A DNA stretch of 57,133 nucleotides from Myxococcota bacterium (GCA_023150835.1 JAKLKB010000001.1:124001-181133); one strand, 5' to 3'; positions 24,845-56,312 are shown, numbered from the stretch's first letter. Notes: generated by a model from the sequence alone, not told the origin. Made by a program: numbers and translations.

Positions 24845-25070
24845 AGATCAAACATCCCTGAAAAGAAACATCTTTTGGCTTATGTCGTCTGTGAAATCGC
24901 AGGATATCACAACAAAGAGGCTTGCGTTGTGCGCTGAGGTTCGGTTCAATGGACGCGATGTGCCTCTTTGGTGGGACATCCCCCCTCGCAATTCTTACGG
25001 GTCTCAGTAGATGCGTTGTGATCGTGCTTTCTACACGCTCGCAAGCTTCTCGAACGCAAAGATTTTTTCC

Positions 25071-27047: not shown

Positions 27048-27065
27048 GATCTCGGAGGTTTTTGG

Positions 27066-28220: not shown

Positions 28221-28239
28221 CACGAAGGAAGACAGCGAG

Positions 28240-29607
28240 ATGGGCGCACAAAAGCAATTTTTTGGAACGGATGGTATTCGAGGTGTCGTGAATCAGCCAC
28301 CGATGACAACGACGATAGCGCATGCTGCGGGAGTTGCGTTGGTCGAGTGGTTGCGGTCGTGCAAGGCTCCGTTGCGGGTGGTGATCGGTCGAGATACCCG
28401 TCGTTCGGGGCCGATGCTTGAAGCTGCATTTGCCGCAGGAGCCGCTGCGATGGGGGCGGAGATCTCGTTGGTTGGAGTTTTGCCAACGCCTGCCGTAGCG
28501 TGGTTGACGTGCGCCGAAGGCGCAGGGGCCGGGGTGATGATCTCGGCTTCACACAATCCTTATCAAGACAATGGGATCAAGATCTTCGATGCACAGGGGC
28601 ACAAGCTCTCTGATGAAGCCGAGATCCGCCTTGAATCCGCGATGCAGCGCGTGTTGACGGGGGAGATGATCTTTCCAAACGCCGAATCCATCGGAGAAAT
28701 CCGCGCCGAGCAAGGAGCTTCGGAGCGTTTTGTGACACATCTGCGATCGGCATGGACGCTTGGTCGTCGATTGAGCGGGGTGCGCGTGGTGGTCGATGCG
28801 GCCAATGGAGCGGCCTTTTGGGTTGGACCTGCTTTGTTTGAGGCTCTTGGAGCTGAGGTGGTCGCACTACATGATCAACCAAATGGGCGCAATATCAACG
28901 AGGGTTGTGGGTCACTTGCGCCGCACATCCTCCGAGACGCTGTGCGCTTGCATCGTGCGCAAGTCGGTCTGGCGCTAGACGGAGACGCAGACCGTTTGAT
29001 CGTCGTGGATGAAACAGGGGCCGTTTTGGATGGCGATCATCTGATGATGATGGCGGCGATCCATCTTTCGCGGCGCGGTGCTTTGGGCGGAGAGGTCTTG
29101 GTCACGACGGTGATGAGCAATCTCGGTCTCGAACGTGCGCTGAAAAAACACGGTATCCGTATGGAACGCACTCCCGTTGGGGATCGCTACGTCAGCGAAC
29201 GGATGCGCGCTTTGGGCGCAACGCTCGGCGGAGAACAATCGGGGCATCTGATCTTTTCGGAGTATTCGACTACAGGAGACGGGCTGCTTGCTGCTCTTCA
29301 GATCCTTGCGTTGATGATCTCCGAAGATCGGCCTCTTTCGTCTCTTGCCGCAGAACTTGAGCCGTTCCCTCAGATCTTGCGAAACTTTCCTGTGCGCGAG
29401 AAACGACCTTGGCAAGATATCCCTGCTTTGCGCCTTGCTGTCGCTTCCGCAGAAGCCGAACTCGGCGCAGAGGGGCGGGTCTTGATCCGCTACTCAGGCA
29501 CAGAAAACAAGCTGCGGATCATGGTCGAAGGCCCGTCGTGGGACTTGATCGAACGCCTCGTCGACAAACTCCAACAAGCTTTCGAAACCGAACTGGGCCT
29601 CGCTTAG
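28240..29607 (+). CDS. glmM: Phosphoglucosamine mutase
   Basis: [34 protein letters not shown]. Confidence 0.97.
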
Positions 29608-40427: not shown

Positions 40428-40590
40428 TCTGCCCACATCCATCCGCCTGTATCCGTTGCGTCTGCCCGCATCCATCCGCCCACATCCGTCTGCCTGTATC
40501 CGTTGCGTCTGCCCGCATCCATCCGCCCACATCCGTCTGCCCGCATCCATCCATCTGCCCGCATCCATCCATCTGCCCACATCCGTCCAT
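40428..40590. repeat. Compound tandem repeat of GCCC(A/G)CATCC(A/G)TC(C/T) units
   Basis: Direct reading; includes a duplicated GCCTGTATCCGTTGCGTCT block. Confidence 0.85.
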
Positions 40591-40614
40591 CGGGCTACGA
40601 CGCTTGCGTCATGT

Positions 40615-40689
40615 GATCTTGATCACGCAGATCGCGATCATGTGATCGTGATCAACGTGATCGTGATCACGCTGATCGGGGCGTGGATC
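40615..40689. repeat. Cluster of 10 GATC sites in 75 bp
   Basis: GATC at 40615, 40621, 40630, 40636, 40644, 40650, 40659, 40665, 40674, 40686. Confidence 0.9.
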
Positions 40690-41035
40690 ACAGGGCAACA
40701 CAGCGCGTATTTCAAAATTTGATTTTGACCGATAGCACTTGTTTATAACAAGGGGGGGCTGCGGAATCCCCCGAAGGAGCGTCGATTTGGAGATCGGGAA
40801 AGTGAACGAATGAATTTGTACAAAAGGCAATGCTTTTCAAGCATATAAAAGTTTTTTGTAGACATGCAAATTTTCGCTGTATTCTCCGCAATGATCTAAG
40901 CGCTTTGGCGCGGGCATAGAGAAAAGAAACGTCTAGGGTCCAAACTTGCGCTTTCCGTTATCGAGCCCACCCCAAGCACCGCTGGATCGTTTGTTGATTG
41001 AATTTTTTGCTTTGCGCGAAAGGACCCCCCCTGAA

Positions 41036-41659
41036 ATGAGCCGAAACACCAACGGATCGTCTTCTCTGTATTCTTTTTCCATCCCGATGACAGCGCTTCA
41101 TCAGAGCGCGAACGTGATCACCTTCATCTCCACCGACGGAAACAAGAGCCTATTCACCAACCGCCCCTTCAAAGCTGGCCAAGTCATCGACGTGTTGCCC
41201 CGTGTGTCCGAGCAAGACTATCCCACCCGCTACACCGTGCAAACGGGCCCGAATCAGCACATCGATATCGGCGAAGTTTGGGCGTGTGGCAATCACTCTT
41301 GCGCACCCACCATGCTGTTCGATATGCGTCGGATGCTGGTGACCGCAACGCGTGATCTCAAAGCCGGCGAAGAACTGACCTTCTTCTACCCCTCGACCGA
41401 ATGGGATATGGCAGAGCCCTTCGTTTGTCATTGCCATTCATCCGAATGCTTGCAACACATCGCAGGCGCTCGTTATATCCCGACCTCCGTCCTCGAAGGC
41501 TACTTCCTCAACGATCACATCGCCGCCTTGGTGACCGAGCGCGACGCACAAAACGACACCGCCGAAACCCACGAAGAACAACACACCAACGGCATCTCCA
41601 ACGGCACATCGAACGGAAACGGTCACGCCGAACACCACCATCGGATCAACGGAAAATAA
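41036..41659 (+). CDS. SET-domain (with post-SET) protein-lysine methyltransferase-like protein
   Basis: NHSC.P, RDL.AGEELTFFY, post-SET CxC...C (CHCHSSEC); start uncertain. Confidence 0.85.
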   Translation: MSRNTNGSSSLYSFSIPMTALHQSANVITFISTDGNKSLFTNRPFKAGQVIDVLPRVSEQDYPTRYTVQTGPNQHIDIGEVWACGNHSCAPTMLFDMRRMLVTATRDLKAGEELTFFYPSTEWDMAEPFVCHCHSSECLQHIAGARYIPTSVLEGYFLNDHIAALVTERDAQNDTAETHEEQHTNGISNGTSNGNGHAEHHHRINGK

Positions 41660-41841
41660 GTCCACGGAAAACACGGAAGACGACCAACGGGAGTCTCACG
41701 CTTCGTAAAACACGGAACACAGGGGGGAAGAGGAACACAGGGGGGAAGAGGAAAACACGGAAAGAAGAGGAACACTCGGGGGCGGGTCGGATGGGGGGCG
41801 GGCAGCGTTAACGATACGGAAAATTGGCGAGTTTCGTCTTG

Positions 41842-41955
41842 TACGAAATCCGCTCGTTGTGTGATCGTAAAGAGGTAGGGGCAGCCCCCCGTGGCTGCCC
41901 AATCATAGGGCGTCTACGCACTCTCCTTTGCTGTGTACATCACTCGGATATAGTC
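41842..41955 (-). mobile_element. MITE-like element, copy 2 (reverse orientation)
   Basis: TACGAAATCCG...GTAGGGGCAGCCCCCCGTGGCTGCCC...CACTCGGATAT. Confidence 0.75.
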
Positions 41956-43389
41956 TTATTCGATACAGCCGTTGTATTCGAGAGTGAACATGCGCTCGGC
42001 GTGGAAGCAGACGTTGTAGAGGGGGAGACCTTTGGCGAGGTGGTGGAGGGTGGTGAAGAGTTGGGACTGAGCGAGGTCTTGGATCTCTTGGAGGAAAGCG
42101 TCGTGGTGTTGTTCTTGGAGGGGTAGGAGTTTGGGTTGCCGGAGCATAAAGAGGCCGGATTGTTTGCGAGCGTAGGCGGAGACTTGGGGGTGGTTGACGA
42201 ACATCTGGCTATTTCCGCAGGCGGGGGAGACGAGGGGTAGTTTGCTGAAGGGTTCGACGTCATCGGTGACGTGGACGTTCATGATGGCGCCTTCGTCGTG
42301 GCGCCCGCCAAGGATGATAAATTCGAGATCGGTGACGCCGCTCCATCGGAGGTGATGGAAGGCGCGGAGGAAGTGTTCGACGAGTTCGCGTCGGATGCCG
42401 TATTCTTCGCCGTGAAGCATCATGAGTCGGATATGTCCGCATCCGATGTGCGGGGGTTGGAGGAGATGTTCGAGGATGGCTTCGCGGAGTTCGGGGGGAG
42501 GACTGGCGAAGTAAGCGCGCCAATCTTCGGCGCGTTGGAGTTGTGGGACTTGTGTTGCGAGGCGGGGATCTTGTCGGATGCTGCGGATCATGGCGTTTGC
42601 GCAATCGATATCGGAGTGCATATAGAAGCGGCCAAAGGAGTCGACGTAGTTTTGGAGAAGTTGGGGGAGGTGGTTGAGATCGATGTGTTGTTGGGTGACA
42701 CGCTCGACCGCAGCGAGGGCAAGGAGGAAGTCGCCAGCGTCGCCACCGGGGACACCGATGACACCCTTTTCATCGCGTCCATCGACACAAGAGCGTTTGC
42801 CGTGGCTGAGGAGGGCTGCGAGGCGGATCCAGCGGATATTTGCGGGATCGCCGAGGTGGGTTTCGACATCGCGGCCATCAAGGTGTTGTCCGGCTTTGGT
42901 GGTGTTTTGGAGCTTTACGTAATCTTCGAGGCCGATATCGGGGGTATCGAGGGAGAAGAGGCGTTTGAGGACGCGGGTGTGTCGGCTGACAAGGTATCCC
43001 ATACGCTTCCACTCTTGCATACCGCCGTACATGGCGGCGACAAACTTCATGCCGAGCATCTCAAGGTAGAGCGCGGCTTTTCCTGCGCGATTTCCGTGAT
43101 TGGAGACAAGGATGATGGCGGTATCGGAGGGATAGGCTTGTGCGAGCAGGGGAAGATCAGCAGGACGAACGCGGACGATGCCGGGGATATGGCCCAAAAA
43201 GCCGAGCAGTTCGTTGTCATCGCGCAAGTCGAACAGGCGGACGCTGCGGCCTTGTTCGGCGACGAATTCGGGGGTTTGGGTGGGGATGCCCGAGGCGGAA
43301 CGTTTGAGATTGACGTTCCAGTTGATCTGAAGGAGGCGTCGGGCAGGATCGATTTGTAGGTTTAGGATCTGTGGGGCGTCATGGTGCAT
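41956..43389 (-). CDS. Rhodanese-like domain fused to a putative carbonic anhydrase domain (zeta/beta-like metal site)
   Basis: N-terminal DLR...E...GHIPG, S..GNRA, GGM..W; C-terminal CVDGR, PGGDAG, MHSD, HIGCGH, GRHDE; GGAGG RBS. Confidence 0.7.
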   Translation of the reverse strand: MHHDAPQILNLQIDPARRLLQINWNVNLKRSASGIPTQTPEFVAEQGRSVRLFDLRDDNELLGFLGHIPGIVRVRPADLPLLAQAYPSDTAIILVSNHGNRAGKAALYLEMLGMKFVAAMYGGMQEWKRMGYLVSRHTRVLKRLFSLDTPDIGLEDYVKLQNTTKAGQHLDGRDVETHLGDPANIRWIRLAALLSHGKRSCVDGRDEKGVIGVPGGDAGDFLLALAAVERVTQQHIDLNHLPQLLQNYVDSFGRFYMHSDIDCANAMIRSIRQDPRLATQVPQLQRAEDWRAYFASPPPELREAILEHLLQPPHIGCGHIRLMMLHGEEYGIRRELVEHFLRAFHHLRWSGVTDLEFIILGGRHDEGAIMNVHVTDDVEPFSKLPLVSPACGNSQMFVNHPQVSAYARKQSGLFMLRQPKLLPLQEQHHDAFLQEIQDLAQSQLFTTLHHLAKGLPLYNVCFHAERMFTLEYNGCIE

Positions 43390-43455
43390 GCGAATCCTCC
43401 CGTCAAGGCGGGTGTGGGTTGATGTTTGGGTGTATCAAGAAGTTAACGTTTGTGC

Positions 43456-43552
43456 GTATCGAGGATAAGGAGCGTAGAGGATTTAATGTTCGGGTGTATC
43501 GAGGATGAGAAGTGTAGAGGATTTAATGTTCGGGTGCATCGAGGACAAGGAG
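43456..43552. repeat. Tandem 40-bp duplication covering the dabB 3' end
   Basis: (GT/GC)ATCGAGGA at 43456, 43496, 43536. Confidence 0.85.
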
Positions 43553-44950
43553 TTCGTGTTTGAGCGAGTGGAGGGCGGGGTCGACAAGTTCGGGTTTGGG
43601 GGATTCGGTGGAGGGGAGGTTGGGCGAGTCGGCGGGTGTGGGGGAGATGGTTTGGAGCAAGTGTTCGTCCCATTGGTTGAGGCGGCGAGAGAACTTGAGG
43701 AGGGGGTTGACGAGGACGCGATCGAAGAAGGCTTCGAGGAGTGCGCGTTCGATGGCGACGAAGTAGAGCCAGCGTTGGAGGCGTTTTGGCAAGCGTTGCC
43801 AGAAGAAAAGGCCGGGGCTTTGGTAGGCTCCGCCATAGAGGGAAGTGATCTCGTGGTGGGTGTGAAGGGCGGAAGGGACTTTGAGGAACTGGTAAGAGCG
43901 CAAGAGTGCGTGGCTAAAGAGGTGGATTTGGGCGAGGGTGATCCATCCGAGGCCGATCTCGATCAGCATAAACCCGAGTTGAACGATGGTGGCGTCTGCA
44001 AGGGAGTTTTTGGCGTCGGTTTGGATCTGACCAAAGAGCGTGCCGAGGATAACGCTGATCGTGCCGAGAACGATCAAGAGGGGAAGGATGCCGGGGGTGG
44101 CTTGGAGCAGGGGAAACATGCGAAGCAACAGGAAGATGCCAAGGTGTGTGGAGAGCGCGCCATAGAAGACAGCGCTGGAGGGAGTGGGGCCTTCCATCGC
44201 ACGAGGTAGCCAGTTGATAAAGGGGAACAAACTGGCTTTGACGACGGCAGCGAGGACAAGAAGAAGGCACAAGAAGAAAGCGATGGAGATCACAGAGCCG
44301 CTTTGAAGGAGGATGCGGAGATTGTCTGGGGTGAGGACGTGTTGGAAGTGGGTGGTTTTGAGGGTGGTGTGAAGCCACAAACCGACGGTCAGAAGGGCGA
44401 GATCGCCGAGTCGGTAGATAAAGAAGATGTAGAGTCCGTTGTCGACGGGGCCTTTGCGCTCGTAGAAAAAGGTGACGAGCAAGACGGAGCTAATGCCCAA
44501 GCACTCCCACCCAACCCACAAAAGGTCGAGACATCCGGCAGTGATGGCGATCTGTAGGCCAAAGGCAGCAAGGTGAAGCAAGATGAAAAAGCGGAGGAAG
44601 CCTTCTTCGCGGTGCAGATAGGAAAAGGCGAAGCGGCCGACAAGACCGACGAGAACGCCCGCAAAGAGCAGATAAAGCAAGGCGAGGCGATCAAGCATCA
44701 AGACGACATCGATACGGTAGGTTTTGAAGAGTCCGTAGGACCAGAACAAGGCGTCAGGATACGAAAGGGTAGCGATGAACAGGAAAAGGATCAGGCCGAC
44801 GTTGAAGACAAAATAAGTGCTGCTCATCTGCTTGACCCATCTTTCAGGAAGATGGAGGCGAAACAACAAGCCGAGGCCGAGTCCGAGGGTGATCGCAAGA
44901 GGAAGAAAAAGCAAGATGAGAAGGGCAAGTTCGATGGTTTGTTTGAGCAT
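43523..44950 (-). CDS. dabB: DabB/MpsA-like NuoL-family proton-conducting membrane subunit
   Basis: LMLDRL, SYLHREEG..RFF, GWE.LGISS.LL..F, YRLGD, KAS.FPF..WLP.AMEGPTPSSA, D.K..L; directly downstream of the DUF2309 gene. Confidence 0.85.
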   Translation of the reverse strand: MLKQTIELALLILLFLPLAITLGLGLGLLFRLHLPERWVKQMSSTYFVFNVGLILFLFIATLSYPDALFWSYGLFKTYRIDVVLMLDRLALLYLLFAGVLVGLVGRFAFSYLHREEGFLRFFILLHLAAFGLQIAITAGCLDLLWVGWECLGISSVLLVTFFYERKGPVDNGLYIFFIYRLGDLALLTVGLWLHTTLKTTHFQHVLTPDNLRILLQSGSVISIAFFLCLLLVLAAVVKASLFPFINWLPRAMEGPTPSSAVFYGALSTHLGIFLLLRMFPLLQATPGILPLLIVLGTISVILGTLFGQIQTDAKNSLADATIVQLGFMLIEIGLGWITLAQIHLFSHALLRSYQFLKVPSALHTHHEITSLYGGAYQSPGLFFWQRLPKRLQRWLYFVAIERALLEAFFDRVLVNPLLKFSRRLNQWDEHLLQTISPTPADSPNLPSTESPKPELVDPALHSLKHELLVLDAPEH

Positions 44951-44955
44951 GGTGA

Positions 44956-47900
44956 TCAGGCTCCTTCCGTCGGATGGGCCGAGGGCGCGGTCGAAGAAGA
45001 AGAAGTAGAGGACGACGAGAGAGAAGAAGGCGAGAGAGAAGAAGGCGAAGAGGAAGCCGAGAGGTCGCGATGTTGGGGACAGTCTTGGCAGGCTTCGGGG
45101 TCGTGAGGGTGGGGTTCACCGATGGAGGCGAGGATACGGGCAGGGAGGAGGTGGCCGCGTTTGCCACGATACCAAACGCTGGACTCGACAGCTTTTTTGA
45201 GCGGCAAAGCGGGGGGAGTCCAAGGGAGGGCCTGTTGTGCTTCCCAGAAGAAGAACTGGCGGGAGTCAGGATCGATCAGTGCGACGCGCAACCATTGGTG
45301 GTCGATAAGTTTTTTGACGTAAGGTAGGTTGGCGAGGACGCGCTCAAAGCGTGCGGGGCTTTGTTCGACGATCATCAAGAGGCGGACAGGTTCGTGGATC
45401 TCGACCATCTGCCAAGGGAGTCCGGCTTGAAGGTCGCTGAGGTTGCCGTTGATCACGCCGATGTATCCGGAGATATTGTGCGGGAGTTTGGTGCCTGCGC
45501 CATAGAAGGAGTTGTTGACGTAGGAGAAGAAGTATTCGAGGTTGATGCCGGCACAGACGGGGACAACGGCGTTCAGGATGGAGGTCAGCGTTTTGATCTC
45601 GTGATCTTGAGAGGGGTTGTAGGAGACGAGGAAGGCACGACGATCGAGATAGAGGTTGCGGGTGAGGTCTCTTCGTCCGACGATGCAAAGGGCGTTGGTA
45701 GCGTGTCCACATTCGGGTCGGGGTTCGGAGATATCACTGGCGCGTTCTTCGACGTGTTCGAGGGCTTCGGCAGGGCTGAGATGGAGGGGGAAAGACTCGA
45801 AGCGTCGGCATCGTTCGTGGGCATTGCGACGGCGGGCTTCGTCGAGGATGGCGCGGATCTCTTGGAAGCGTTGTTGGTGAGAAGGGGGGAGCTTGTCGAG
45901 TTCGTAGTATTCGATGGAGTCTGCGGTGGTATCGTGCATACAGCCGACAAACCAAGTATCATCGGGGATATCGATCAGGGCTTGATTGCGGAGGGATTGG
46001 CGGATGGAAGGGGTGTTGAGGGTGGCGGCAAAGATACGGGCGTTGGGGCCGCCTTGTGCGCCGCCACAAGCGCCGCAGTCGTAGGCGGCTTTGTGGGGGT
46101 TGTTGCGACTGCTTGATCCGTGTCCTGTGACAAAGATCAACGGAGCGAAGTTGGAGGTGAGTCCCATGATGCGCAGGATCGATTGAACGCGGGCCAAGAG
46201 TTCGTCGTGGGTGAAGCCTTCGGCATCGGTGGCATCGGTGGCATCGGTGGCATCGGTGGCATCGGTGGCATCGGGCTTGAGGATGGTCATCTCGGTTTGG
46301 ATGGTGGGCAGGAAGCCCGTTTTGAAGCGTTGTTCGACCTCTTTGGCTTTTCGGGGGGCAAGGATGCGCAAGAGCATCGGGATGAAGTTGAGCAGTCCGA
46401 TCACAAGGGTCCAAAAGAATCCGCGAAGGGGCATCCGGCTATTGACAAAGCTTTGTCGTCGGAACCATCCGAGCAGTCGGCGTTTGCGGAAAAGCTCTTC
46501 GAGAGGTTGATGTTGTTTTTCGGGGTGGGGTTGGGGTCGTTCGCCGACTTTGTTTTTGGGGAAAAGGACAGGAGGGCAAAGAGACCGATAGTAGGGGTCT
46601 TGGAGTCCTTTGTATTTCATATCGATGCCAAAGAATCCGGCGACTCCGAAGGTTTCGCAACGCGGGTCGATCTCTTCGAGGTGACGGCGAAAGGACTCTT
46701 CGCGGTCGTCGATGCAGCAGGCGATCTGAAAGGAAGGTCGGTCTTTTTTGGGGGGTAGGCGATCATTTTGGGCGATGTTTTCGTGCAGGCCGTCGAGGGC
46801 GCGTTGGTAGTAGTTTCGTTCGTAAGCGAGGTGCCAGATCCATGCGCGCTGGGTTTCGTCGAAGGAAGCGATATCGCGGTTGATTTGTTGGAGATGTTCG
46901 TGGGGGGCGTGGGCGAATTCGTCGGCGGAGATGCCGGCGTAGAGGCAGCATTGGAAGAGGTAGTAGGAATCGGCGAGGATATCACGTGGAGGCGTGGGAA
47001 GGAGAGCGCGGACGTCTTTCCAAGGTTTGGCCATCCAAGCACAGGTGGGTCGTTCGATGATCTCGTCGGACCAAGCGGCCCATTCAGCGGAGATCTGGAG
47101 GGCGATGGCTTGGAGTAGAGAAGGGGTTTCTTCGGGCCGGACAAGATAATCGGGCCGTTGTTCGAGCATACGGATCATGCCCATCCAGCCGCGCAAAGAG
47201 AAGATCACAGAAGAGAGATACGTTTCGTGATCTTCGGGGGCGACTTGGAGTTTTTGGAGAGCGATGGCGATGATCTTTTCGGGTGTATAGGACTTTTCGA
47301 GCGCGTTTCGGAGCGCGGAAACGAGCGTTTCAAGCCAGCGTTCCATCGGGGTGAGGGCGCGGTCGTAGATCGCAACGAACGTGCGCAGGATGCCTTCTTC
47401 GCGATCGGGCATGGGCTGAAATGACATACCTTGATCGCAGAAGCGAGAGAGAAAGCGCAGAAGGATGGGGTGTGTTTTGTTGTCGAGATCTTCGCCTTCT
47501 TGGGCCAACAAGACATCGCGGTGTCGGTGAAAAGGAGAGGTGGGTGTGGGCAACAGCGTGTGGTGACGGCTCCATTTGAGGCAACGAAGCCAGAGTGCGG
47601 TGAGTGTGAATTGTTCGGTGTCTTCATAGACCCATGCGTCGAGTTCTTCGGTGGTTTTGGGAGAGAGTTGGTAGTAGGCTTGGAGCAAGTGTTGGGCGAG
47701 GTCGGGTTGGGATTCAGCGGTGAGGTATTCGATGCGTTCTTGGAGGGAGCCTTGGCGAGCAAAGTGATTCCAGCGGGTCTGAAAACGCTCGATGTGTCGC
47801 TGTTTGAGTTCAAGGGGAAGGCGTAGAGGAAAGCGCAGGAGTTCGCCTTGTTCGAGCAGTCGCCAAGAAAGCGCGCCAAGAGAGGGGGGTTGAAGTCCGT

Positions 47901-48570
47901 GTTGCAAGATCAAACGCTTCCAAAGTGTCGGCGTGTTGAGATAGGCGGATATCCCGATGGGAAGGTCTGTTTGAGCGGGGGAGAGTTGAAGGATGGCGTC
48001 GATATCGTCGAGCGTGATCCGCCCTGTTTGAAGATCTGCGAAGTAGTCCGCTTCTTTTCGCAAAGAGTGGGTTTCAAAGGAGCGGTTGGCCCGTTGGATG
48101 GCTTCTTGGAAAGTGAAATCCTCGAAGGCGTGCAGTGTATTGTGGTGGATAAAATAATCCAGCGGATGTTGTGAGGGGAGATAATGGCCGAGTTCTTCGA
48201 CCAGTTCGAGCAGATGATTCGTGGTTTCTTCGCTCGGTTCGGTGCTTTGCGAGACGGAGGAGTGAGCAGGTGGCGCATCGGCGGATTGTGAGATCGTTGG
48301 TTGTGAAGGCGATGTATCGGTGCTTTGCGGGGTTGTTGGCTGTGAAGGCGGTGTATCGGTGCTTTGTGAGGTCGTTGGCTGTAAAGGCGGTGTATCGGTG
48401 ATTTGTGAGGTTGTTGGCTGTGAAGGCGGTGTATCGGTGCTTTGTGATGTCGTTGGCTGTGAAGGCGGTGTATCGGTGCTTTGCGACGTAGCGGTTTGTG
48501 GTGTTGAATCGTGCGTCTTTGAGAGGCCGATGTTTTCGGGGGTTGGGTGAAGATTTTTGGGTTCGGTCAT
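44956..48570 (-). CDS. dabA: DabA/MpsB (DUF2309/UPF0753) inorganic-carbon transporter subunit
   Basis: LPSQ.PL..FIHHNTL.AF, CCIDDREESFRRHLE, T.GVAGFFG, CPP, GHGS...NNP..AAYDCGACGG, H.TT, RPE, RR.FL.SY, INLEY.FS, GLP.Q....HEP.RL. Confidence 0.95.
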   Translation of the reverse strand: MTEPKNLHPTPENIGLSKTHDSTPQTATSQSTDTPPSQPTTSQSTDTPPSQPTTSQITDTPPLQPTTSQSTDTPPSQPTTPQSTDTSPSQPTISQSADAPPAHSSVSQSTEPSEETTNHLLELVEELGHYLPSQHPLDYFIHHNTLHAFEDFTFQEAIQRANRSFETHSLRKEADYFADLQTGRITLDDIDAILQLSPAQTDLPIGISAYLNTPTLWKRLILQHGLQPPSLGALSWRLLEQGELLRFPLRLPLELKQRHIERFQTRWNHFARQGSLQERIEYLTAESQPDLAQHLLQAYYQLSPKTTEELDAWVYEDTEQFTLTALWLRCLKWSRHHTLLPTPTSPFHRHRDVLLAQEGEDLDNKTHPILLRFLSRFCDQGMSFQPMPDREEGILRTFVAIYDRALTPMERWLETLVSALRNALEKSYTPEKIIAIALQKLQVAPEDHETYLSSVIFSLRGWMGMIRMLEQRPDYLVRPEETPSLLQAIALQISAEWAAWSDEIIERPTCAWMAKPWKDVRALLPTPPRDILADSYYLFQCCLYAGISADEFAHAPHEHLQQINRDIASFDETQRAWIWHLAYERNYYQRALDGLHENIAQNDRLPPKKDRPSFQIACCIDDREESFRRHLEEIDPRCETFGVAGFFGIDMKYKGLQDPYYRSLCPPVLFPKNKVGERPQPHPEKQHQPLEELFRKRRLLGWFRRQSFVNSRMPLRGFFWTLVIGLLNFIPMLLRILAPRKAKEVEQRFKTGFLPTIQTEMTILKPDATDATDATDATDATDAEGFTHDELLARVQSILRIMGLTSNFAPLIFVTGHGSSSRNNPHKAAYDCGACGGAQGGPNARIFAATLNTPSIRQSLRNQALIDIPDDTWFVGCMHDTTADSIEYYELDKLPPSHQQRFQEIRAILDEARRRNAHERCRRFESFPLHLSPAEALEHVEERASDISEPRPECGHATNALCIVGRRDLTRNLYLDRRAFLVSYNPSQDHEIKTLTSILNAVVPVCAGINLEYFFSYVNNSFYGAGTKLPHNISGYIGVINGNLSDLQAGLPWQMVEIHEPVRLLMIVEQSPARFERVLANLPYVKKLIDHQWLRVALIDPDSRQFFFWEAQQALPWTPPALPLKKAVESSVWYRGKRGHLLPARILASIGEPHPHDPEACQDCPQHRDLSASSSPSSLSPSSLSSSSTSSSSTAPSAHPTEGA

Positions 48571-48612
48571 GTTTCACCTAGGGGGTTGTAAGGCGGTTGG
48601 TGCAAGAGGAGA

Positions 48613-49995
48613 TTAAGAAAAGCGGAAGAAGACGTAAGGGACAAAGCCGTTGATGACGATGATCAAGACGAAGCCGAGGAAAGCGAGGTATTCGCGGGGC
48701 TTGAGCGAGATATCGAAGTGAGGCAGGTAGGCGACAGGGCCGAGAAAGACGCGGGAGAAACAGCGGAACATCACCCATGCGTTGAGGCCGATGACGACGA
48801 GGGAAGCAAAGCCTTGGACGGCGTCGTGATTAAAGCGAGTTTGGAGGACGAGTTCTTCTGCGATATAGCCGATGGTTCCGGGGAAGCCGAGAGCGGTGAG
48901 TACGAGCAAGAAGAAAAAGGCGGCGAGGCTAGGGAGTCGGCGTGCGAGTCCTTGGTGTTGGGTGATGCGAGTGACATCAAGGCGGGCTTCGGCAAGCCAG
49001 AGAACGCCGAGCACACCGCCAAAAACGACGGTGACCATCGCAAGTTCGATGGTGCTGTGATGGAGGTGGCTGCGGTTGGGAGTAAGGAAAAGCGTCATCC
49101 CAAGGGAAAGAAAGGAGAGGTATTGGTAGAGGGCAAGGGAGCGCAGGGTGTTTTGGGTGAGGGAGATCAGGGAGAAGTAAAAGGCGTTGAGCAAAAAGAC
49201 GATGAGCAAGACTTCACGGAGAGGTTGGAGCAGATGGAGCAAGTAGAGACTGCCGAAGAAAAGGGTGGAACCAAGCAGGGCGTGGCTAAAGAGATAGGCC
49301 ATGAGTGCGCTGTATCGGGCTTTTTGAAAGAGCAGCAAAGAAGGGAGATGCAGGGGAGCCAAACCGATCTGAAAAAACAGCGCAAGAGCAAAGAGCAGCG
49401 AGGTGAGAAAGCTGATCTTGGTGTGCGGAAGGAGGAGATAAAGTTCGTGGAGGGAAAAGAGAGAGGGTTGGTCTTTGAGAGGGAGATCGGCGTAGAGGGA
49501 AGCAAAGGCAGCGACGAGCAGAAGGATTTTGGTGGATTGAAAGAAGAGGAAAAAACTGGTTTGACGGGGTGTTGCGTGACGGACGCGGAGTTCCAAGTAG
49601 AAAGGGAGGATCAGCAAAAGAAGCGAGACAAAGAAGGTCAGAAGATGGGCGGACAAGAGCAGGAGAGAGAGGGCGAAGTGGACGAGGAAGATCAGGGTCA
49701 CTTTTTGGACGTAGTACAGGTTGGAGGGGCACAACAGCACCAGAAGGAGGAACAAGAAAGAGAAGAAGCAAAGCAAGAGAGCTTGGTAGGGTGCGCTGGC
49801 GATGCCAAGGCTCGGCCAAGCGCTGAAGGAGTCGGGAGATTTGGAGAGCAGGAGGATCAAGGCGAGGAGCCAAGCGGTGGTTGCGGCAAAGTGGGCGATA
49901 AAGCGCGGGAAGGTGCGTCCCCAAGAAGAGAGATGCAGCGCGGCGATCGCGAGCAAGGGAGTTAGTAGGATCAAGATCAGTTTCCAAGCCATCAT
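48613..49995 (-). CDS. Second, NuoM/MrpD-like membrane subunit (degenerate)
   Basis: Many TM helices; G..PLH; GLARRLP.L...F....L..LGFPGT.GY.AE; F..VF.G; EY. Confidence 0.8.
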   Translation of the reverse strand: MMAWKLILILLTPLLAIAALHLSSWGRTFPRFIAHFAATTAWLLALILLLSKSPDSFSAWPSLGIASAPYQALLLCFFSFLFLLLVLLCPSNLYYVQKVTLIFLVHFALSLLLLSAHLLTFFVSLLLLILPFYLELRVRHATPRQTSFFLFFQSTKILLLVAAFASLYADLPLKDQPSLFSLHELYLLLPHTKISFLTSLLFALALFFQIGLAPLHLPSLLLFQKARYSALMAYLFSHALLGSTLFFGSLYLLHLLQPLREVLLIVFLLNAFYFSLISLTQNTLRSLALYQYLSFLSLGMTLFLTPNRSHLHHSTIELAMVTVVFGGVLGVLWLAEARLDVTRITQHQGLARRLPSLAAFFFLLVLTALGFPGTIGYIAEELVLQTRFNHDAVQGFASLVVIGLNAWVMFRCFSRVFLGPVAYLPHFDISLKPREYLAFLGFVLIIVINGFVPYVFFRFS

Positions 49996-50168
49996 CAAAA
50001 ATACTCTCGGAATGAACGGCAAAAAACCCACCGCAAGGGATCCCGTTGTTTTGTGAGGGGAGGCGGTAAAGTTGTTTGCGTAGTGGTGTGAGTGAAGCTA
50101 TCGGACGTCCGAAGAGATGCGCGAGGTGCAGGGTGGATCTTTTTGACCAGCGGTGTGTATGCGCGAGA

Positions 50169-50867
50169 TTAGGGGCGTTGCAACTCGGGTAAGCGCAGTC
50201 CGATTAGCAGAAAAAGAGCCGACGAAAGGGCAAACGATTTGTAGCCGTAGAGAGGGAAAAGCCACGTTGCCAAAGCAGAACCTGCGACAAAAAAGATCAT
50301 CGTATCCAAGCGGATCGCGTTTTTGTTTTTCTCCACAGGGTCGCCTGTCAACAAGATGCGCGCAGAACCTATTCCCAGATCGGTGAGTGGGCCCGTCAGA
50401 TGCGTTGTGCGCACCACCGCTTTTGTGTACAGCGTGATGATGGCGTTTTGCGCGCCGCTACAAGCCGCGAGGATCGCCACAGGGAAAAAGTGGGACCATT
50501 GCTCGACTTTGCCACCAAATCGCCCAAACAAGGCGCTTTCTCCACCGATCATCACAAGCATCACCAGCAGCGCGAGGATCGAAAAACAAAAGCCATGTGC
50601 AGAGGCTTGGGTGGGTTGTTGTTTTTCGATAAAAAGCGCACTCAAAAAAGCGCCGACAAAAAAGAACACAAGGATCACCAAGAAAAACAGCACTTGGATC
50701 CATGCTTGTTTGGCGAGTTGCTGGCCAAAAAAGGAAAAGGCACCCGTCACATGCACAATCAGCGATTGCACCGCGAGAAACCCGCCGATATTGAGGTAGC
50801 CTGCTTGGAACGCCAACAAGATCCAAACCAGTCGATCCGTTGGGCGATAAGGAAATTCGGGGTGCAT
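50169..50867 (-). CDS. DUF1275/YoaK-family membrane protein
   Basis: LAF.AGY.N..GF, HVTG, F..GA..S, G.QNA, VRTTHLTG.LTDLG; GAGGAG RBS. Confidence 0.85.
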   Translation of the reverse strand: MHPEFPYRPTDRLVWILLAFQAGYLNIGGFLAVQSLIVHVTGAFSFFGQQLAKQAWIQVLFFLVILVFFFVGAFLSALFIEKQQPTQASAHGFCFSILALLVMLVMIGGESALFGRFGGKVEQWSHFFPVAILAACSGAQNAIITLYTKAVVRTTHLTGPLTDLGIGSARILLTGDPVEKNKNAIRLDTMIFFVAGSALATWLFPLYGYKSFALSSALFLLIGLRLPELQRP

Positions 50868-51251
50868 CCAGTCTCCTCGGCGATGGAAAAGCACGGCAAA
50901 CCACGATGGTTGCGGCATATTTAACAGAGAGCAACGCAGGGGTACACGTATGGCTTTGAAGTGAGTGGAGGGAGCGGGCCATCCATGCAACGCGCTCACT
51001 TTTGCAGGGGCTTTTGTCGTTTGTCAAGGAATTTGATACATATGTGCATACGTTCGCATCTTTGTATTGTGCAGAGCAAAGAGCAGAAACGCGCTTGACG
51101 GTGGAGGGGCGAAAAGGCGCTGGGGGAGAGAGGTGGGGAAGTGCGGAGGGTGAGGAAGCGCGCTTGACGGTGGAGAGGTCGCGGGATAGGCTGTGGGTGT
51201 GGATTGTTGATTGGTGAGGACAACAAGGCATTCCCGAGGGAGGAGCCGAAG

Positions 51252-52781
51252 ATGCGACAACTGCGACGGATGGTTTTGTGTAGTGTGGTGTGTTGGGCGT
51301 TGTGGGGAATGAGTGGGCGGGCGAGTGCGGAGTGTATCGAACTGAAAAACGATACGTTTCAAGAAAATGCGCCGCAAGTGACGGCGGTGCGTTCTTTTTG
51401 TATCTCCGAGTTTTTTGGTTCGATTTTTGTGGCTCCCAAGGATATCACGTTGCAAAAAGTGCGGATGTTGGTGTCAGGGGACGGTAAGACGCCGATGTTG
51501 ATGACGCCGATCAAGGTTTTGATCTTCAAAGAGAAAGCACCGGATAGTGCGACTCCGATGGAGCCTGCCTTGAGTGGAGAAGAAGAGTACGGGATCAACA
51601 ACACGCAGCTTACGCCGCAATGGATCGAGGTGAAGACAAGCGCTTATACCTTTAAGGCGGGGGAGCGTTTTCGGGTGACGTTTGCGCACGACAACATTGA
51701 TTGCGAGAACATCAATACCACCAAGCCCTATTGTGCGGGATATTGCGAGTGGTGGGGGGCGACGGTGGACAAGGGGCCGATTAAAGAAAACACGAACGTG
51801 GTGCTCGGCAAGATGTTTGATTGCCAAGGTGGACTTCCCGATCGCAAGTGGCGTTTTTGGAAAGATCTTCCTGAGGCGTGTCGCCCGACGGGGAATTTGA
51901 TCTTGCGAGCGTATGTGTACGATGGCAACGGAAGGGATTGCAACGCGACTCCGCAAAGTTGCGTTCCTGCATCGACACAGGCGTGTACTTGTACGGATGG
52001 GAAAACGGGAAGCCAAACTTGCGCAGCCAACGGCGTTTGGGGGAATTGCACGTGTGGAACGCCCCAAAGCTGTACACCGAATGCGACGGAGCCGTGTACC
52101 TGTACGGATGGGAAAAGTGGTCAGCGCACCTGTGGAAGTGCCGGTCAATGGGGTTCTTGCGTGTGTGCTTCGGGTTGTACGACAGGGGCGACGCAGCCGT
52201 GTGTTTGTGTGGGCGGAAAAAGCGGTACGCAGACTTGCGAAGCGGGCGGAAAGTGGGCTGTTTGTGTGTGTAAAGGTGCGAGCGTTTGTGCGCCCGGGGC
52301 GACACAGGCTTGTACATGCACAACGGGAACCACAGGGGCACAGACGTGTAACACCGAAGGATCGGCGTGGTTAGAATGCAAGTGCGTCTCTGCCCAAGAA
52401 CCCAAGGTCACACGGATCACCCCTGAAAAAGGGTTGAACAGTCAAAACACCGATGTCACGGTGATCGGGGAAAACTTTGTTGAGGGGGCCAAGGTGTACA
52501 TCGGAACTGCCGCAGCGTTGGAGGTTTCTGTGCTTGGACCGAAGTCGATCGCGGCCAAAGTACCCGCAGCGATCAAGCCGGGCTTGTACGATGTGGTGGT
52601 CGAAAATCCGGGCGGAAAGAGTGGGCGTTTGGACAAGGCTTTTTCGGTCGAAGCGGCAGGTTGTGGTTGTTCGCAGATGTCGGGGCGAGAAGGGATGCCG
52701 TTGGAGTTGGTGTTTTTTGTGTGGATGTTGTGGTGGCTGCTGCGTCGTCGTTCGAGCGAGTGGTTTGAGGGCCGAAGATAG
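51252..52781 (+). CDS. Secreted Cys-rich repeat protein with IPT/TIG domain and MYXO-CTERM-like sorting signal
   Basis: Signal peptide; 4 x C.PG.T..C.C..G..G..TC...G.W..C.C; P.V..I.P..G......VTV.GENF; GCGC + TM + RRR. Confidence 0.85.
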   Translation: MRQLRRMVLCSVVCWALWGMSGRASAECIELKNDTFQENAPQVTAVRSFCISEFFGSIFVAPKDITLQKVRMLVSGDGKTPMLMTPIKVLIFKEKAPDSATPMEPALSGEEEYGINNTQLTPQWIEVKTSAYTFKAGERFRVTFAHDNIDCENINTTKPYCAGYCEWWGATVDKGPIKENTNVVLGKMFDCQGGLPDRKWRFWKDLPEACRPTGNLILRAYVYDGNGRDCNATPQSCVPASTQACTCTDGKTGSQTCAANGVWGNCTCGTPQSCTPNATEPCTCTDGKSGQRTCGSAGQWGSCVCASGCTTGATQPCVCVGGKSGTQTCEAGGKWAVCVCKGASVCAPGATQACTCTTGTTGAQTCNTEGSAWLECKCVSAQEPKVTRITPEKGLNSQNTDVTVIGENFVEGAKVYIGTAAALEVSVLGPKSIAAKVPAAIKPGLYDVVVENPGGKSGRLDKAFSVEAAGCGCSQMSGREGMPLELVFFVWMLWWLLRRRSSEWFEGRR

Positions 52782-53820: not shown

Positions 53821-53932
53821 TACGATATCTGAGTGGTGTGTGATCGAAGGAGAGTGCGTAGGCACCCTGTGGTTGGGCAGTCACGGGGGGCTGCCCCTAC
53901 GTTTGACGATCACTCTATGGGCGGATTTCGTA
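53821..53932 (+). mobile_element. MITE-like element, copy 3; overlaps the mvaA 3' end
   Basis: TACGATATCTGAG...GGGCAGTCACGGGGGGCTGCCCCTAC...CGGATTTCGTA. Confidence 0.75.
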
Positions 53933-55258
53933 TTCTGGGGCTTTGCGGATCTCTTGGAGGATCGAGCGAGCGATATCGTGAGAGAAGCGCCCGCCGCGTT
54001 GGGCCATGCGTTGGGCGACGAGATCGATCTCGTTGCCGATGGCTCCGATCTCTGCGGCGATGTTGCGGCTGTGTAGACGCATGTGACCTTGTTGGATGCC
54101 TTCGTTGGCGAGAGCGCGTAGGGCCGCGAGGTTTTGGGCCAATCCGATGGCTGCGGCGATCTGTGCAAGTTCTTGGGCGGTGGATATCTGCATGATCTGG
54201 AGGGCGGCTTTGGCGGTGGGATGGACGCGGATCACGCCGCCGACCACGCCAACGGCCATCGGTAGGGTGATCTCACCATGCAGCGCCCCTTCTCGAACGC
54301 GCCAACGCGAAAGGGCGGTGTATCGGCCTTGTTGCGATGCGTAGGCATGTGCGCCCGCTTCGACGGCGCGGTAATCTTGGCCTGTGGCGACAAGCACAGC
54401 ATCGATACCGTTCATGATGCCCTTGTTGTGTGTGGCTGCGCGGTAGGGATCGCGTTCGGCAAAGATCGAGGCTTCTTGGACACCGTAGGCGATGGCTTGG
54501 CCTTCTTCGGGGGGTTGGTTGGGTTTGCAAAAAGCGGCGAAAGGAACGTTGCCTCGGACTGTGACAAGGCGCTTGTCGGCAAGGTTGCTGAGGATGCGCA
54601 GCCGCGCCCGTCCTCCCGAGATCTGCGCCATTCGAGGAGCGATGCCTTCGCACATGGTGTTGACGGCATTTGCGCCCATCGCATCGCGGACGTCGACGAT
54701 CAAGTGAACGATCAGCATCGGGCCGAGCGGATCGTCTTGTTCGAGCGGATCAAGGCGGCGGAGTTCGATCGCACGGGGGCCACCGCCGACTTCGACAAGA
54801 CGGGGATCAAGGCTGGCGGCTTGGGCGAGCAGTTCGTCTTGGTGTTCGCGCAAAAGAGCGATGGCGCGGTCCATATCGGGGATATCGCATAGCTGCACTT
54901 GGCCGATCATCAGAGGGGGAGTGCTTTCGGCGTGGAGGCCGCCGCCCGCCCGCAGCAGCTTGGCAGCGTGGGAGGCTGCGGCCACGACGGAGGCTTCTTC
55001 GATGGCCATGGGGACGAGGTGATCGCGGCCATTGAGTTGGAGGTTGAGGCAGACGCCGAGAGGCTGGTTCATCAGGCCGATGACGTTTTCGACCATCTGC
55101 TCGGCTTTTTCGATGGGGAGAGGATGCTCACCCCACAAGCTTTCTTGGGTGAGCGCGTCTAGCCCGAGGTGTTCGGCAAGTTGAGCGCGCCGCTGTTCGA
55201 GGGAGTGCTTGTAAAAAGCAGGGAGGGTGCTGGGGGTGTGGGGGGGATTCTTAGGCAT
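53915..55258 (-). CDS. mvaA: Class II HMG-CoA reductase
   Basis: ENVIG, PMAIEEASVVAAAS, DAMGAN, RILSNL, RAATHNKG.MNG, GIQQGHMRLH. Confidence 0.95.
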   Translation of the reverse strand: MPKNPPHTPSTLPAFYKHSLEQRRAQLAEHLGLDALTQESLWGEHPLPIEKAEQMVENVIGLMNQPLGVCLNLQLNGRDHLVPMAIEEASVVAAASHAAKLLRAGGGLHAESTPPLMIGQVQLCDIPDMDRAIALLREHQDELLAQAASLDPRLVEVGGGPRAIELRRLDPLEQDDPLGPMLIVHLIVDVRDAMGANAVNTMCEGIAPRMAQISGGRARLRILSNLADKRLVTVRGNVPFAAFCKPNQPPEEGQAIAYGVQEASIFAERDPYRAATHNKGIMNGIDAVLVATGQDYRAVEAGAHAYASQQGRYTALSRWRVREGALHGEITLPMAVGVVGGVIRVHPTAKAALQIMQISTAQELAQIAAAIGLAQNLAALRALANEGIQQGHMRLHSRNIAAEIGAIGNEIDLVAQRMAQRGGRFSHDIARSILQEIRKAPEYEIRP

Positions 55259-56291
55259 GGTGTCTCCCGATCGGCAAGAGGCGCACCTTCCGCAGTGCGG
55301 CGATATCGGATGCGCCGGTACAAAAACACAAGACTTTGAGTTCGTGGATCAGCTCACGCAAAAAGGATTCGAGGGCATCTTCGCTTTGGGTGGCGGCTTG
55401 CAGGACGGGTTGTGCAAGGGCCACGACATCGGCCCCAAGAGCGAGGGCGACCGCGATATCCATGCCTGTGCGTATCCCTCCTGAGCCGATCACGAGGCGC
55501 GTGGGAAAGTGTTTGCGGCAGTGCAAGATCGACTCAGCGGTGGGGGTTCCAAAAGCACGCAATCGTTGCCCGAGGACGGCAGAGGTACTTTGTGCGGGGG
55601 CGCGGTAGGCTTCGACACGCGCCCAAGACGTTCCGCCAACGCCCGATGCTTCGATGCCTGCGAGGGGCAGGCGCGCTAATTTCTCAGCGGTGCGTTCGGA
55701 GATCCCCGACCCCACTTCTTTGGCGACGCAAGGGACACCGATGGCTTGGATGGCCTCGTGCATCTTTCTCCACAGGCCGCGAAATTGGGTGTCGCCTTCG
55801 GGCTGGATCGCCTCTTGGAGCGGATTGAGGTGGAAAAACAAAGCATCCGCCTCGGTGGACTGGACGATCTGTTGGAGTTCGGGTAGTCCGACGCCCAAAC
55901 CAAGCTGGACAGCCCCGATGTTTCCGAGAAGTAGCGGTAGTTCTGGCGCTGTTTTCCGAACAGCAAAGGTGTCGGCCAGTGTGGGATCTTTGAGCATCGC
56001 ACGTTGCGAACCAAGGCCCATCCCAAGTCCAAGGCGCTCTGCCACCCGAGCGATCCGATGATTGATCTCTCCCGCCCAAGGACTGCCGCCTGTCATCGAG
56101 CCGATCAGCAGCGGAGCTTGCAAACGTCGCCCAAGGATCTCCACGCTCAAATCGACCTCTTCGAGATCGATCTCAGGCAGCGCGTCGTATTCGAGCCGAA
56201 AACCTCCAAGGCCCGTACTGACTTCTGTTCCGACTTCTTCTTCTAGGCAGATCCGCAAGTGATCGTCTTTGCGTTGTTGGATCTGGCTCAT
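55251..56291 (-). CDS. fni: Type 2 (FMN) isopentenyl-diphosphate isomerase
   Basis: RK.DH, MTGG, GSQR, HLNPLQE..QPEGD, KEVG.G, GGTSW, SGGIR.G.D. Confidence 0.95.
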   Translation of the reverse strand: MSQIQQRKDDHLRICLEEEVGTEVSTGLGGFRLEYDALPEIDLEEVDLSVEILGRRLQAPLLIGSMTGGSPWAGEINHRIARVAERLGLGMGLGSQRAMLKDPTLADTFAVRKTAPELPLLLGNIGAVQLGLGVGLPELQQIVQSTEADALFFHLNPLQEAIQPEGDTQFRGLWRKMHEAIQAIGVPCVAKEVGSGISERTAEKLARLPLAGIEASGVGGTSWARVEAYRAPAQSTSAVLGQRLRAFGTPTAESILHCRKHFPTRLVIGSGGIRTGMDIAVALALGADVVALAQPVLQAATQSEDALESFLRELIHELKVLCFCTGASDIAALRKVRLLPIGRHHA

Positions 56292-56312
56292 GCTCAACTC
56301 CTTCTTGCCTCG

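Follow-up and report, generated by a model that had tools for sequence, protein, structure and literature searches.

The present work concerns a 57,133-nucleotide stretch of DNA from a Myxococcota bacterium (GCA_023150835.1, JAKLKB010000001.1:124001-181133; referred to as the window, with positions counted from its first letter) and, within it, a cluster of five genes that includes a putative DAB-type inorganic-carbon pump. The cluster had been singled out by a model from the DNA alone (hereafter the sequence-only reading). All five genes are co-oriented on the minus strand, where they encode, in turn, (i) a DUF1275 (YoaK-type) membrane protein of 276 amino acids counted from a GTG start (50169-50999; PF06912, E = 7.8e-28); (ii) a full-length NuoM-like protein, here called the third subunit, of 460 amino acids if translated from ATG 49995 or 472 amino acids if translated from GTG 50031 (48613-49995 or 48613-50031); (iii) DabA, the predicted catalytic subunit related to β-class carbonic anhydrases (CAs), with 1204 amino acids (44956-48570; PF10070, E = 3.8e-226); (iv) DabB, a short NuoL-like protein of 475 amino acids and the predicted proton-path subunit (43523-44950; PF00361, E = 1.9e-40; PF00662, E = 3.5e-06); and (v) a soluble fusion of a rhodanese-homology domain with a ζ-CA-like domain, 477 amino acids long (41956-43389; PF00581, E = 7.3e-10 on residues 49-129).

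The listing of open reading frames (ORFs) gave intergenic gaps of 173, 42, 5 and 133 nt in turn, the 5-nt gap being that between dabB and dabA; these figures assume that the NuoM-like gene starts at ATG 49995, the start given in database record P0125. The five co-oriented genes and the spacing of 5-173 bp described in the sequence-only reading were thereby confirmed. For the DUF1275 gene, whose product scored 98.1 bits against a cut-off of 25.4 and has about five hydrophobic segments, alternative in-frame ATG starts are present at 50918 and 50867, the latter being the end assigned originally. Profiles PF10070, PF00361, PF06912 and PF00581 all found their expected partners in the cluster, and the CA half of the fusion protein was invisible to both Pfam and NCBIfam.

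DabA matched PF10070 with 753.5 bits (cut-off 25) over profile positions 1-747, and a search of the genome showed it to be the only DabA present. With its Pfam match above cut-off, as is that of the product of the adjoining gene, the assignment of DabA and DabB as a DAB-type pair held. Motifs CCIDDR, GHG and CGAC were all found, and residues C619, D621, R623, H817 and C832 aligned to the zinc-site residues of DabA2 (9rd0_A), the role of these Cys, Asp, Arg and His residues as a β-CA-like zinc site being taken from the DAB papers. The intactness of the zinc-site motifs (CxD, GHG, CGAC), as claimed from the DNA, was thus supported by their position on the DabA2 site. A hydropathy scan revealed a single hydrophobic stretch in DabA (residues 715-740), which fits the membrane-inserting elbow placed at the same position in the published structures. 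The gene further contains three in-frame tandem repeat arrays: a 39-nt unit present 5.1 times (within 48286-48483) that encodes N-terminal 13-residue tandem repeats of the TSQSTDTPPSQPT type in frame, a 9-nt unit present 5.9 times (within 46222-46274) that encodes in-frame Asp-Ala-Thr repeats after the elbow, and a 15-nt unit (45016-45063) within the Ser-rich C-terminal tail. Assembly of RNA contigs broke at the 39-nt and 9-nt repeats.

DabB had its best NCBIfam matches among NuoL models; it matched NuoL/NdhF chains and, at E = 2.5e-23, DabB2 (9rd0_B). Residues E149 and K238, the Glu and Lys of the proton path, are invariant in all seven related DabB sequences compared. Its hydrophobic segments stop near residue 345, beyond which the protein continues as a conserved soluble tail.

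The second membrane protein ranked nearest NuoM in NCBIfam and showed about ten hydrophobic stretches; its match to PF00361 was modest (E = 1.1e-06, 28.6 bits against a cut-off of 21.5). It is strongly diverged, as a search of 5.8 billion proteins returned only four close relatives, beyond which the matches were ordinary NuoM-type proteins with an identity of 24-34%. When it was aligned to Paracoccus NuoM (8qby_M), the Glu of transmembrane helix (TM) 5 was found replaced by Leu and the Lys of TM7 by Gln, and the Lys of TM8 was lost; the helix numbers follow the usual complex I labels. The same positions were inspected in a family alignment of eight third subunits, namely that of the window, two database relatives and those of five loci from the survey described below (L099, L123, L124, L125, L128), and were also compared with the genome's own NuoM and with canonical NuoM-like proteins. 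The TM5 Glu was missing in all eight family members (one of them having a gap) and so was the TM8 Lys, while the TM7 position had Arg (four proteins), Gln (three) or Met (one) in place of Lys; Gln is the residue found in the window's own genus. All three residues are retained in the genome's own NuoM, in P0129 and in the proteins of loci L116 and L122. The PGT/GF motif is kept in the third subunit, and its relatives share a family-specific ELR motif.

Other DabA loci were surveyed by searching 401 genomes with PF10070. Sixteen genomes, including that of the window, had a match at E ≤1e-20, and the survey comprised 16 other DabA loci: 15 from 13 genomes outside the window's family plus one from G003, a member of another genus of the same family. 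In G003 one strand carries genes for a β-CA, a SulP transporter, DabA, a 477-residue DabB and a second PF00361 protein, to which the third subunit of the window is 29% identical (E = 3e-16). Four arrangements were distinguished. Five loci (L099, L123, L124, L125, L128) have a short DabB (441-477 amino acids) directly followed by a full-length (430-499 amino acids), degenerate NuoM-like gene, and a hidden Markov model (HMM) of the third-subunit family matched the gene after DabB in all of them (E from 1e-133 to 1e-184). Two loci (L119, L121) contain an ORF without a Pfam match between dabB and dabA; the C-terminal half of the third-subunit HMM matched these ORFs (2.1e-10 and 1.8e-07), as expected for candidate DabC proteins. 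Three loci (L116, L120, L122) have three canonical PF00361 genes about 2.4 kb after DabA (489-490, 647-730 and 500-508 amino acids) with the proton-path residues kept, an arrangement that is the Mrp-linked DabA architecture. The remaining six (L117, L118, L126, L127, L129, L130) consist of two genes only.

In a quick maximum-likelihood tree of 17 DabA proteins, the DabA of the window fell into a clade of eight with an SH-aLRT support of 100, together with the five loci having a long third subunit and loci L127 and L129; it grouped apart from the loci with the small ORF between dabB and dabA. The idea that a second antiporter-like subunit belongs to the pump was therefore supported, since related DabA-DabB pairs of other lineages are also accompanied by such a subunit. 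A different picture was obtained for the outer genes. DUF1275 was found at none of the 16 other DabA loci, and the same was true of the rhodanese/CA-like gene. SulP transporter genes adjoin the DAB genes at five of the 16 loci and β-CA genes at two (L099 and L124). The neighbourhood survey hence did not uphold a five-gene unit: what different lineages have in common is limited to the three core genes. One of the SulP proteins, encoded after the three-subunit DAB genes of genome G312 (L124:13877-15859), ends in a P-II domain (PF00543, E = 2.3e-09), which may be a built-in regulator as on other bicarbonate transporters.

An extra membrane subunit has a published analogue in the DAB1 complex, given the resemblance of the locus to a heterotrimer with a degenerate DabC. 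In the accessible part of a recent preprint, DAB1 of Thermocrinis albus is described as a DabA-DabB-DabC heterotrimer whose DabC is a half-size, NuoM-like protein with hydrophobic residues at the NuoM proton path and no water chain, and which is needed for function in CA-free Escherichia coli (bioRxiv 10.64898/2026.05.01.722082). With this publication, the earlier statement that such pumps usually have one membrane subunit is out of date. The portion of the DAB2 paper that was available presents a two-subunit form and refers to the extra gene of DAB1 as a small hypothetical membrane protein (PMC13144422). Like DAB1 of T. albus and Halothiobacillus neapolitanus, the window encodes a PF10070-type DabA with zinc site and elbow, a NuoL-like DabB and a NuoM-like third subunit in which proton-path residues are swapped for non-ionisable ones. 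Unlike DabC, which is roughly half as large as NuoM and has no Pfam match, the third subunit of the window is full length and recognised by PF00361; its gene lies upstream of dabA, whereas that of H. neapolitanus lies between dabA1 and dabB1; and DabB has 475 instead of 559 amino acids. In comparison with DAB2 of H. neapolitanus (9RD0; PMC13144422), the DabA of the window aligns with all zinc-site residues and its DabB matches DabB2, but both DAB2 and MpsAB of Staphylococcus aureus are two-subunit systems, to which the window adds a NuoM-like subunit while having a shorter DabB. Supplements and the study by Schmid et al. 2021 (DAC complexes) aside, no description of a full-length third subunit was found in the DAB papers retrieved, as far as these were consulted. 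On the basis of its residues and family, the third subunit appears to be a long-form analogue of DabC in which the conserved proton-path residues are replaced. The predicted three-subunit DAB system, with a long, proton-dead NuoM-like subunit and a rearranged gene order, would be a novel variant of the DAB1 kind of pump.

Expression of the cluster was assessed with contigs over positions 40500-52500 assembled from four metatranscriptomic RNA-Seq runs of one sample of one study. A 4,330-nt contig (41922-46251) without any difference to the window joins the genes for the fusion protein, DabB and DabA. Further contigs cover 46245-48360, next to which the break in the repeat region of dabA occurs, and from 41922 to 48360 no contig deviates from the window. 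On the other side of the break, contigs of 2.0-2.5 kb on 48454-50971 join dabA, the NuoM-like gene and DUF1275. The cover stops at 50971, with a depth of 0-5 over 50926-52128, so that the upstream region serves as a built-in silent control against carry-over of DNA. The expression check on the proposed cluster hence had a positive outcome, with all four junctions bridged and the contigs stopping upstream of DUF1275. Co-expression of the five genes is therefore probable in this genus. The difference between identical contigs in one part of the cluster and variant ones in the other (see below) suggests a strain mosaic or a recombination boundary inside the cluster.

A candidate promoter/operator region was recognised upstream of DUF1275 (50972-51090, minus strand). 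Within it are a TTGACA (51027-51022) and a palindrome of 8 bp, ACATATGT (51045-51038). The block is nearly identical in the genus-mate G001, with ACATATGT beside TTGACA conserved in both. A scan of 40500-52000 with the σ70 consensus yielded no promoter-like site, and no convincing intrinsic terminator was found in the intergenic gaps of the unit, all minus-strand matches in 41956-50999 being located within genes. Upstream of DUF1275 (51090-51190), a direct repeat, CCACCGTCAAGCGCG, occurs twice at a distance of about 70 nt; G001 has one intact copy, and the second is beside a 43-nt deletion. At the opposite end of the cluster, the bin 41703-42103 had a summed RNA contig depth of 110-383 in all four runs as compared to about 20-45 in the neighbouring bins. 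Many loose contig ends and one joint map to 41717-41917, between the fusion gene and a convergent gene for a SET-domain protein (40946-41659). The depth peak near 41703-41920 may reflect a small abundant RNA, a repeat, or a conserved element that other organisms have in common with this one.

The distribution of the outer genes was also followed from the side of the fusion protein. Among 80 loci of the fusion family, 79 lacked DabA, DabB, NuoM-like and DUF1275 genes within 10 kb (tblastn, 1e-5). The exception is G001, which retains the five-gene order over two contigs: C127 carries DUF1275, the NuoM-like gene (92% identity) and the beginning of dabA, whose remainder is on C496 together with dabB and the fusion gene. 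A second genus-mate, G002 (64% complete), carries the fusion gene alone; neither DabA nor DUF1275 was found. The fusion family has no conserved neighbour, since ORFs around two reference loci recurred in at most nine of the 80 loci and none was shared beyond one genus. DUF1275 and the fusion gene are thus local, genus-specific additions and not conserved parts of the pump. There was likewise no basis for regarding DUF1275 as an anion transporter, as had been supposed; related clusters carry SulP instead (five of 16).

The fusion protein lacks any hydrophobic segment in the hydropathy scan. Among 7,998 candidates scored, at least 440 relatives of similar length were found at E ≤0.001; those with names belong to Polyangium, Sandaracinus, Nannocystis and Corallococcus, with rhodanese-like as their sole annotation. 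The rhodanese domain is closest to that of BpPRF, a persulfide dioxygenase-rhodanese fusion (5VE3/5VE4), both by profile (5ve3, E = 3.8e-21) and by structure (Z = 15.7). The partner domain of BpPRF is unrelated to that of the window's protein, and, in contrast to BpPRF, the fusion family has a Ser at the catalytic position: S96, conserved in at least 90% of members, aligns to the catalytic Cys of the 5ve3 rhodanese loop. Sulfur transfer by this domain is therefore unlikely.

The C-terminal part of about 300 residues was not recognised by any Pfam family, including the CA families, in any of 34 members at E up to 10, and no CA family of NCBIfam matched the fusion protein. A profile search of PDB sequences returned only rhodanese chains and thus no match to this part, and the ESM Atlas yielded no usable match for the domain. 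AlphaFold2 produced confident models of the whole protein (mean per-residue confidence, pLDDT, 91.3; predicted TM-score, pTM, 0.88) and of the domain alone (residues ~170-477; pLDDT 90.2, pTM 0.89). When the domain model was compared with 48,161 PDB representatives by VIA-align, repeat 3 of CDCA1, a cadmium/zinc carbonic anhydrase of the ζ class from a diatom (3uk8_A), was the sole match with Z ≥5, the next best reaching 4.9. The superposition had a Z of 10.4, a root-mean-square deviation of 3.2, 174 of 214 residues aligned and 16% identity; with the model of the whole protein, Z rose to 11.7. Foldseek E-values for CDCA1 were weak (0.02-0.04 with the whole model, 0.55-0.85 with the domain, for which no match at E ≤0.001 was obtained), so that the match rests on the VIA-align Z and on the Foldseek target TM-scores, which were 0.54-0.59 for CDCA1 rows, the only rows above 0.5. 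Within the fusion family, C201-V-D203-G-R205, H258 and C317-G318 are invariant (alignments of 34 and 32 sequences), as are H319, H364 and H400. According to the accessible text on CDCA1 repeat 3, Cys473, His525 and Cys535 are the metal ligands, a β-CA-like Asp/Arg dyad is present, Asp475 and Gly536 form hydrogen bonds to the metal-bound water, and Val474 lines the CO2 pocket (PMC8217695). By analogy, we infer a putative metal site formed by C201, H258 and C317 with D203/R205 as the dyad.

The resemblance to CDCA1 of Thalassiosira weissflogii (3UK8, 3BOB, 7BEZ) thus extends from the CVD start of the motif through a His and a Cys-Gly in the same order to the putative Asp/Arg dyad. The differences are an identity of 16-17% without profile match, a helical insert of about 50-60 residues that sets the second Cys apart from the candidate His, the linkage to a rhodanese-homology domain, and the occurrence in bacteria, mostly Myxococcota; CA activity and metal binding of the bacterial domain are putative. 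To our knowledge, the ζ-CA fold has been known only from diatoms. The modelled structure indicates that the C-terminal domain of the fusion has this fold. The CA-like domain of the rhodanese-CA fusion proposed in the sequence-only reading was borne out in this respect; its co-conservation with the DAB genes was not. Membership of the β class was not supported, as Pro_CA (PF00484) was absent from all 34 members and hhalign to the β-CA of G003 gave a probability of 2%. The fusion was also considered as a paralogue of DabA or of β-CA; this was rejected because hhalign of the domain profile against either was not significant.

The ζ-CA-like domain is not restricted to rhodanese fusions. Its profile, run against 1.84 billion representatives, retrieved 1,498 clusters (50% identity) at E ≤0.001, 370 of them at ≤1e-30, and these include stand-alone proteins of about 300 amino acids and proteins with two or four tandem copies. 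No Pfam family covered the domain in 16 further family members that were scanned. Three proteins with tandem copies (P0141, P0142 and P0266; 1888, 1877 and 1039 amino acids with four, four and two copies, respectively) are gene models of Cyanophora paradoxa, and one Cyanophora protein aligned to the domain profile with a probability of 99.9 and with CxDGR, FYMHTD, GCGH and HP kept. Tandem ζ-CA-like repeats in this CO2-concentrating glaucophyte alga recall CDCA1 with its three repeats and raise the odds of a CA-type function. Judged by their sequences, the Cyanophora repeat proteins are candidates for unrecognised carbonic anhydrases of the glaucophyte.

The genome (7.56 Mb) is 93% complete. 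That the window has neither a RuBisCO nor a carboxysome gene, as pointed out before, was confirmed, and a search of the genome for the RuBisCO large subunit (PF00016) was empty as well. A single β-CA (PF00484) is encoded on another contig, and a normal NuoL/M/N set is present on contig C23, in addition to the two PF00361 genes of the locus. The description of the host as a myxobacterium agrees with the records of close relatives, which are titled Myxococcota or Myxococcales, but not with the placement of the lineage, which belongs to a phylum with only 6 genomes in the set searched. Activated sludge or wastewater is the label of the sequencing runs in which the stretch occurs. DAB homologues are reported to occur in heterotrophs too, where they are thought to supply carboxylases with bicarbonate, as far as covered by the accessible text (PMC13144422).

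From these data, a vectorial carbonic anhydrase of the DAB type with three subunits is the likely product of the locus, with DUF1275 and the fusion as co-expressed accessory genes in this genus. DabA would hydrate CO2 at a buried β-CA-like zinc site (C619, H817 and C832 with D621/R623), and its elbow would insert into the membrane and couple it to the short NuoL-like DabB. The latter, with the Glu and Lys of its proton path kept, would provide the proton-motive drive. The full-length NuoM-like protein would dock beside DabB and act structurally or allosterically, like half-size DabC in DAB1. In this organism, in which RuBisCO was not found, the bicarbonate produced would feed carboxylases or pH control, with no carboxysome involved. 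Assembly of the three subunits, the direction and the ion of coupling, catalysis by the fusion protein and the physiological role of the system are all to be read in this conditional sense.

Several points weigh against this reading. Binding and activity of the proteins are predicted from their sequences. The sample of 16 other DabA loci from 401 genomes is small. Gene order is not conserved: the third subunit is encoded upstream of dabA in the window, but downstream of dabB in the five further loci that have it. DabB, with 475 amino acids, is shorter than DabB1 and DabB2 (559 and 551 amino acids according to the accessible part of a 2018 preprint), and coupling may therefore differ from that in the solved complexes. 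With respect to expression, the RNA contigs are unstranded and derive from one sample, and a contig spanning two genes cannot prove a single transcript. Those on 48454-50971 have 64-65 differences to the window and one A inserted after 49996, and thus come from a strain variant. The gaps of 133 and 173 nt could house internal promoters. Finally, the TM12 Glu is retained in the third subunit and most of its relatives have an Arg at the TM7 position, so that an ion-handling role is possible.

The last point leads to an alternative in which the NuoM-like protein functions as a second channel for ions instead of a passive scaffold, so that two ions would be moved per cycle, or another ion such as Na+. 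Its full length and about ten hydrophobic stretches, the TM12 Glu, the kept PGT/GF motif and, in relatives, the TM7 Arg and the ELR motif would agree with such a function, and a homologue of MpsAB has been proposed, in the accessible text, as Na+/bicarbonate symporter (PMC13144422). We nevertheless regard this as quite improbable, because the TM5 Glu and the TM8 Lys are gone in all eight proteins, the window's genus has Gln at TM7, and DabC with like replacements is described in the available part of the preprint as showing no water chain (bioRxiv 10.64898/2026.05.01.722082). A different alternative, the view taken in the sequence-only reading, treats the five genes as parts of a single integrated machine; for instance, the fusion would act in it as a regulated cytosolic CA-like enzyme and DUF1275 as an anion path. 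RNA contigs of similar depth over all five genes, with every junction bridged and an end just outside, as well as the order retained in G001, are consistent with this idea. Analogous extras in related clusters (SulP at five of 16 loci, cytosolic β-CA at L099 and L124) further make a CA beside a DAB pump a recurring theme. The machine is unlikely all the same in view of the 79 of 80 fusion loci that have no DAB-cluster gene nearby and the lack of a conserved neighbour, of G002 with its solitary fusion gene (in a 64% complete genome), of the absence of DUF1275 and of the fusion from each of the 16 other DabA loci, and of DUF1275 having no known transport function.

The role of the fusion protein itself can be seen differently. 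It might be a hydrolase of carbonyl sulfide (COS) or carbon disulfide (CS2), or another thiol or metal enzyme without CA function, that came to lie beside the pump by chance in this genus. This rival is a live one given that CDCA1, the sole structural match, also hydrolyses CS2 (PMC8217695, accessible text); moreover, the partner domain has the fold of the sulfur-handling rhodaneses, and the family is unlinked to DAB genes elsewhere. The catalytic Cys of the rhodanese is replaced by Ser, however, the CVD motif and Asp/Arg dyad are equally suited to CO2 hydration, the tandem-repeat forms in a photosynthetic alga recall CDCA1 of a CO2-concentrating organism, and the gene is co-expressed here with those of the pump, so that we rate this explanation as possible though somewhat unlikely. 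A broader proposal, which we put forward only tentatively and would not expect to hold in full, is that the C-terminal domain founds a large, unannotated branch of ζ-CAs, comprising Myxococcota-like dead-rhodanese fusions, stand-alone proteins of about 300 residues in other bacteria and the two to four repeats of Cyanophora, and that in this genus it was recruited to a DAB operon, where it serves the pump as a regulated partner in the cytosol. If this were true, it would explain how a soluble CA coexists with a vectorial CO2 pump, and the recruited fusion might produce CO2 at the membrane, with bicarbonate or COS/CS2 as the source, or be a gated release valve.

The concern that a soluble CA would short-circuit a bicarbonate pump was justified and is wider than the locus, since genuine β-CAs adjoin related DAB clusters (L099, L124). 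A periplasmic location of these adjacent β-CAs was considered and rejected because their translations lack a hydrophobic N-terminus. The pump of a heterotroph need not hold bicarbonate far from equilibrium, and a soluble CA may thus be tolerable. Other possible explanations would be differential regulation or a gating role of the dead rhodanese domain.

Some features of the window are peripheral to the pump. The plus strand has a strong GC skew of about +0.3 sustained over the minus-strand genes between 36000 and 56000, at a G+C content of about 55%, which means that the coding strands are C-rich. Genes for a cyclic di-AMP synthase (DAC domain), a YbbR protein and a phosphoglucosamine-mutase-like protein are found in a row at 25011-29607. 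At 53915-56297 a gene for 3-hydroxy-3-methylglutaryl-coenzyme A reductase adjoins one for a flavin mononucleotide-dependent dehydrogenase-like protein, which may point to a mevalonate pathway.

Among the energy-driven carbonic anhydrases, DAB pumps are the simplest known, and their first structures date only from 2026. The combination of a short DabB with a full-length, proton-dead NuoM-like partner looks like an intermediate between the antiporter modules of complex I type and the minimal DabC, and the class of pumps with a long third subunit can reveal the purpose of that subunit. Co-expression of a soluble CA-like enzyme with a CO2 pump makes the short-circuit question testable in a heterotroph, and the unannotated domain family to which this enzyme belongs gives concrete candidates for missing carbonic anhydrases.

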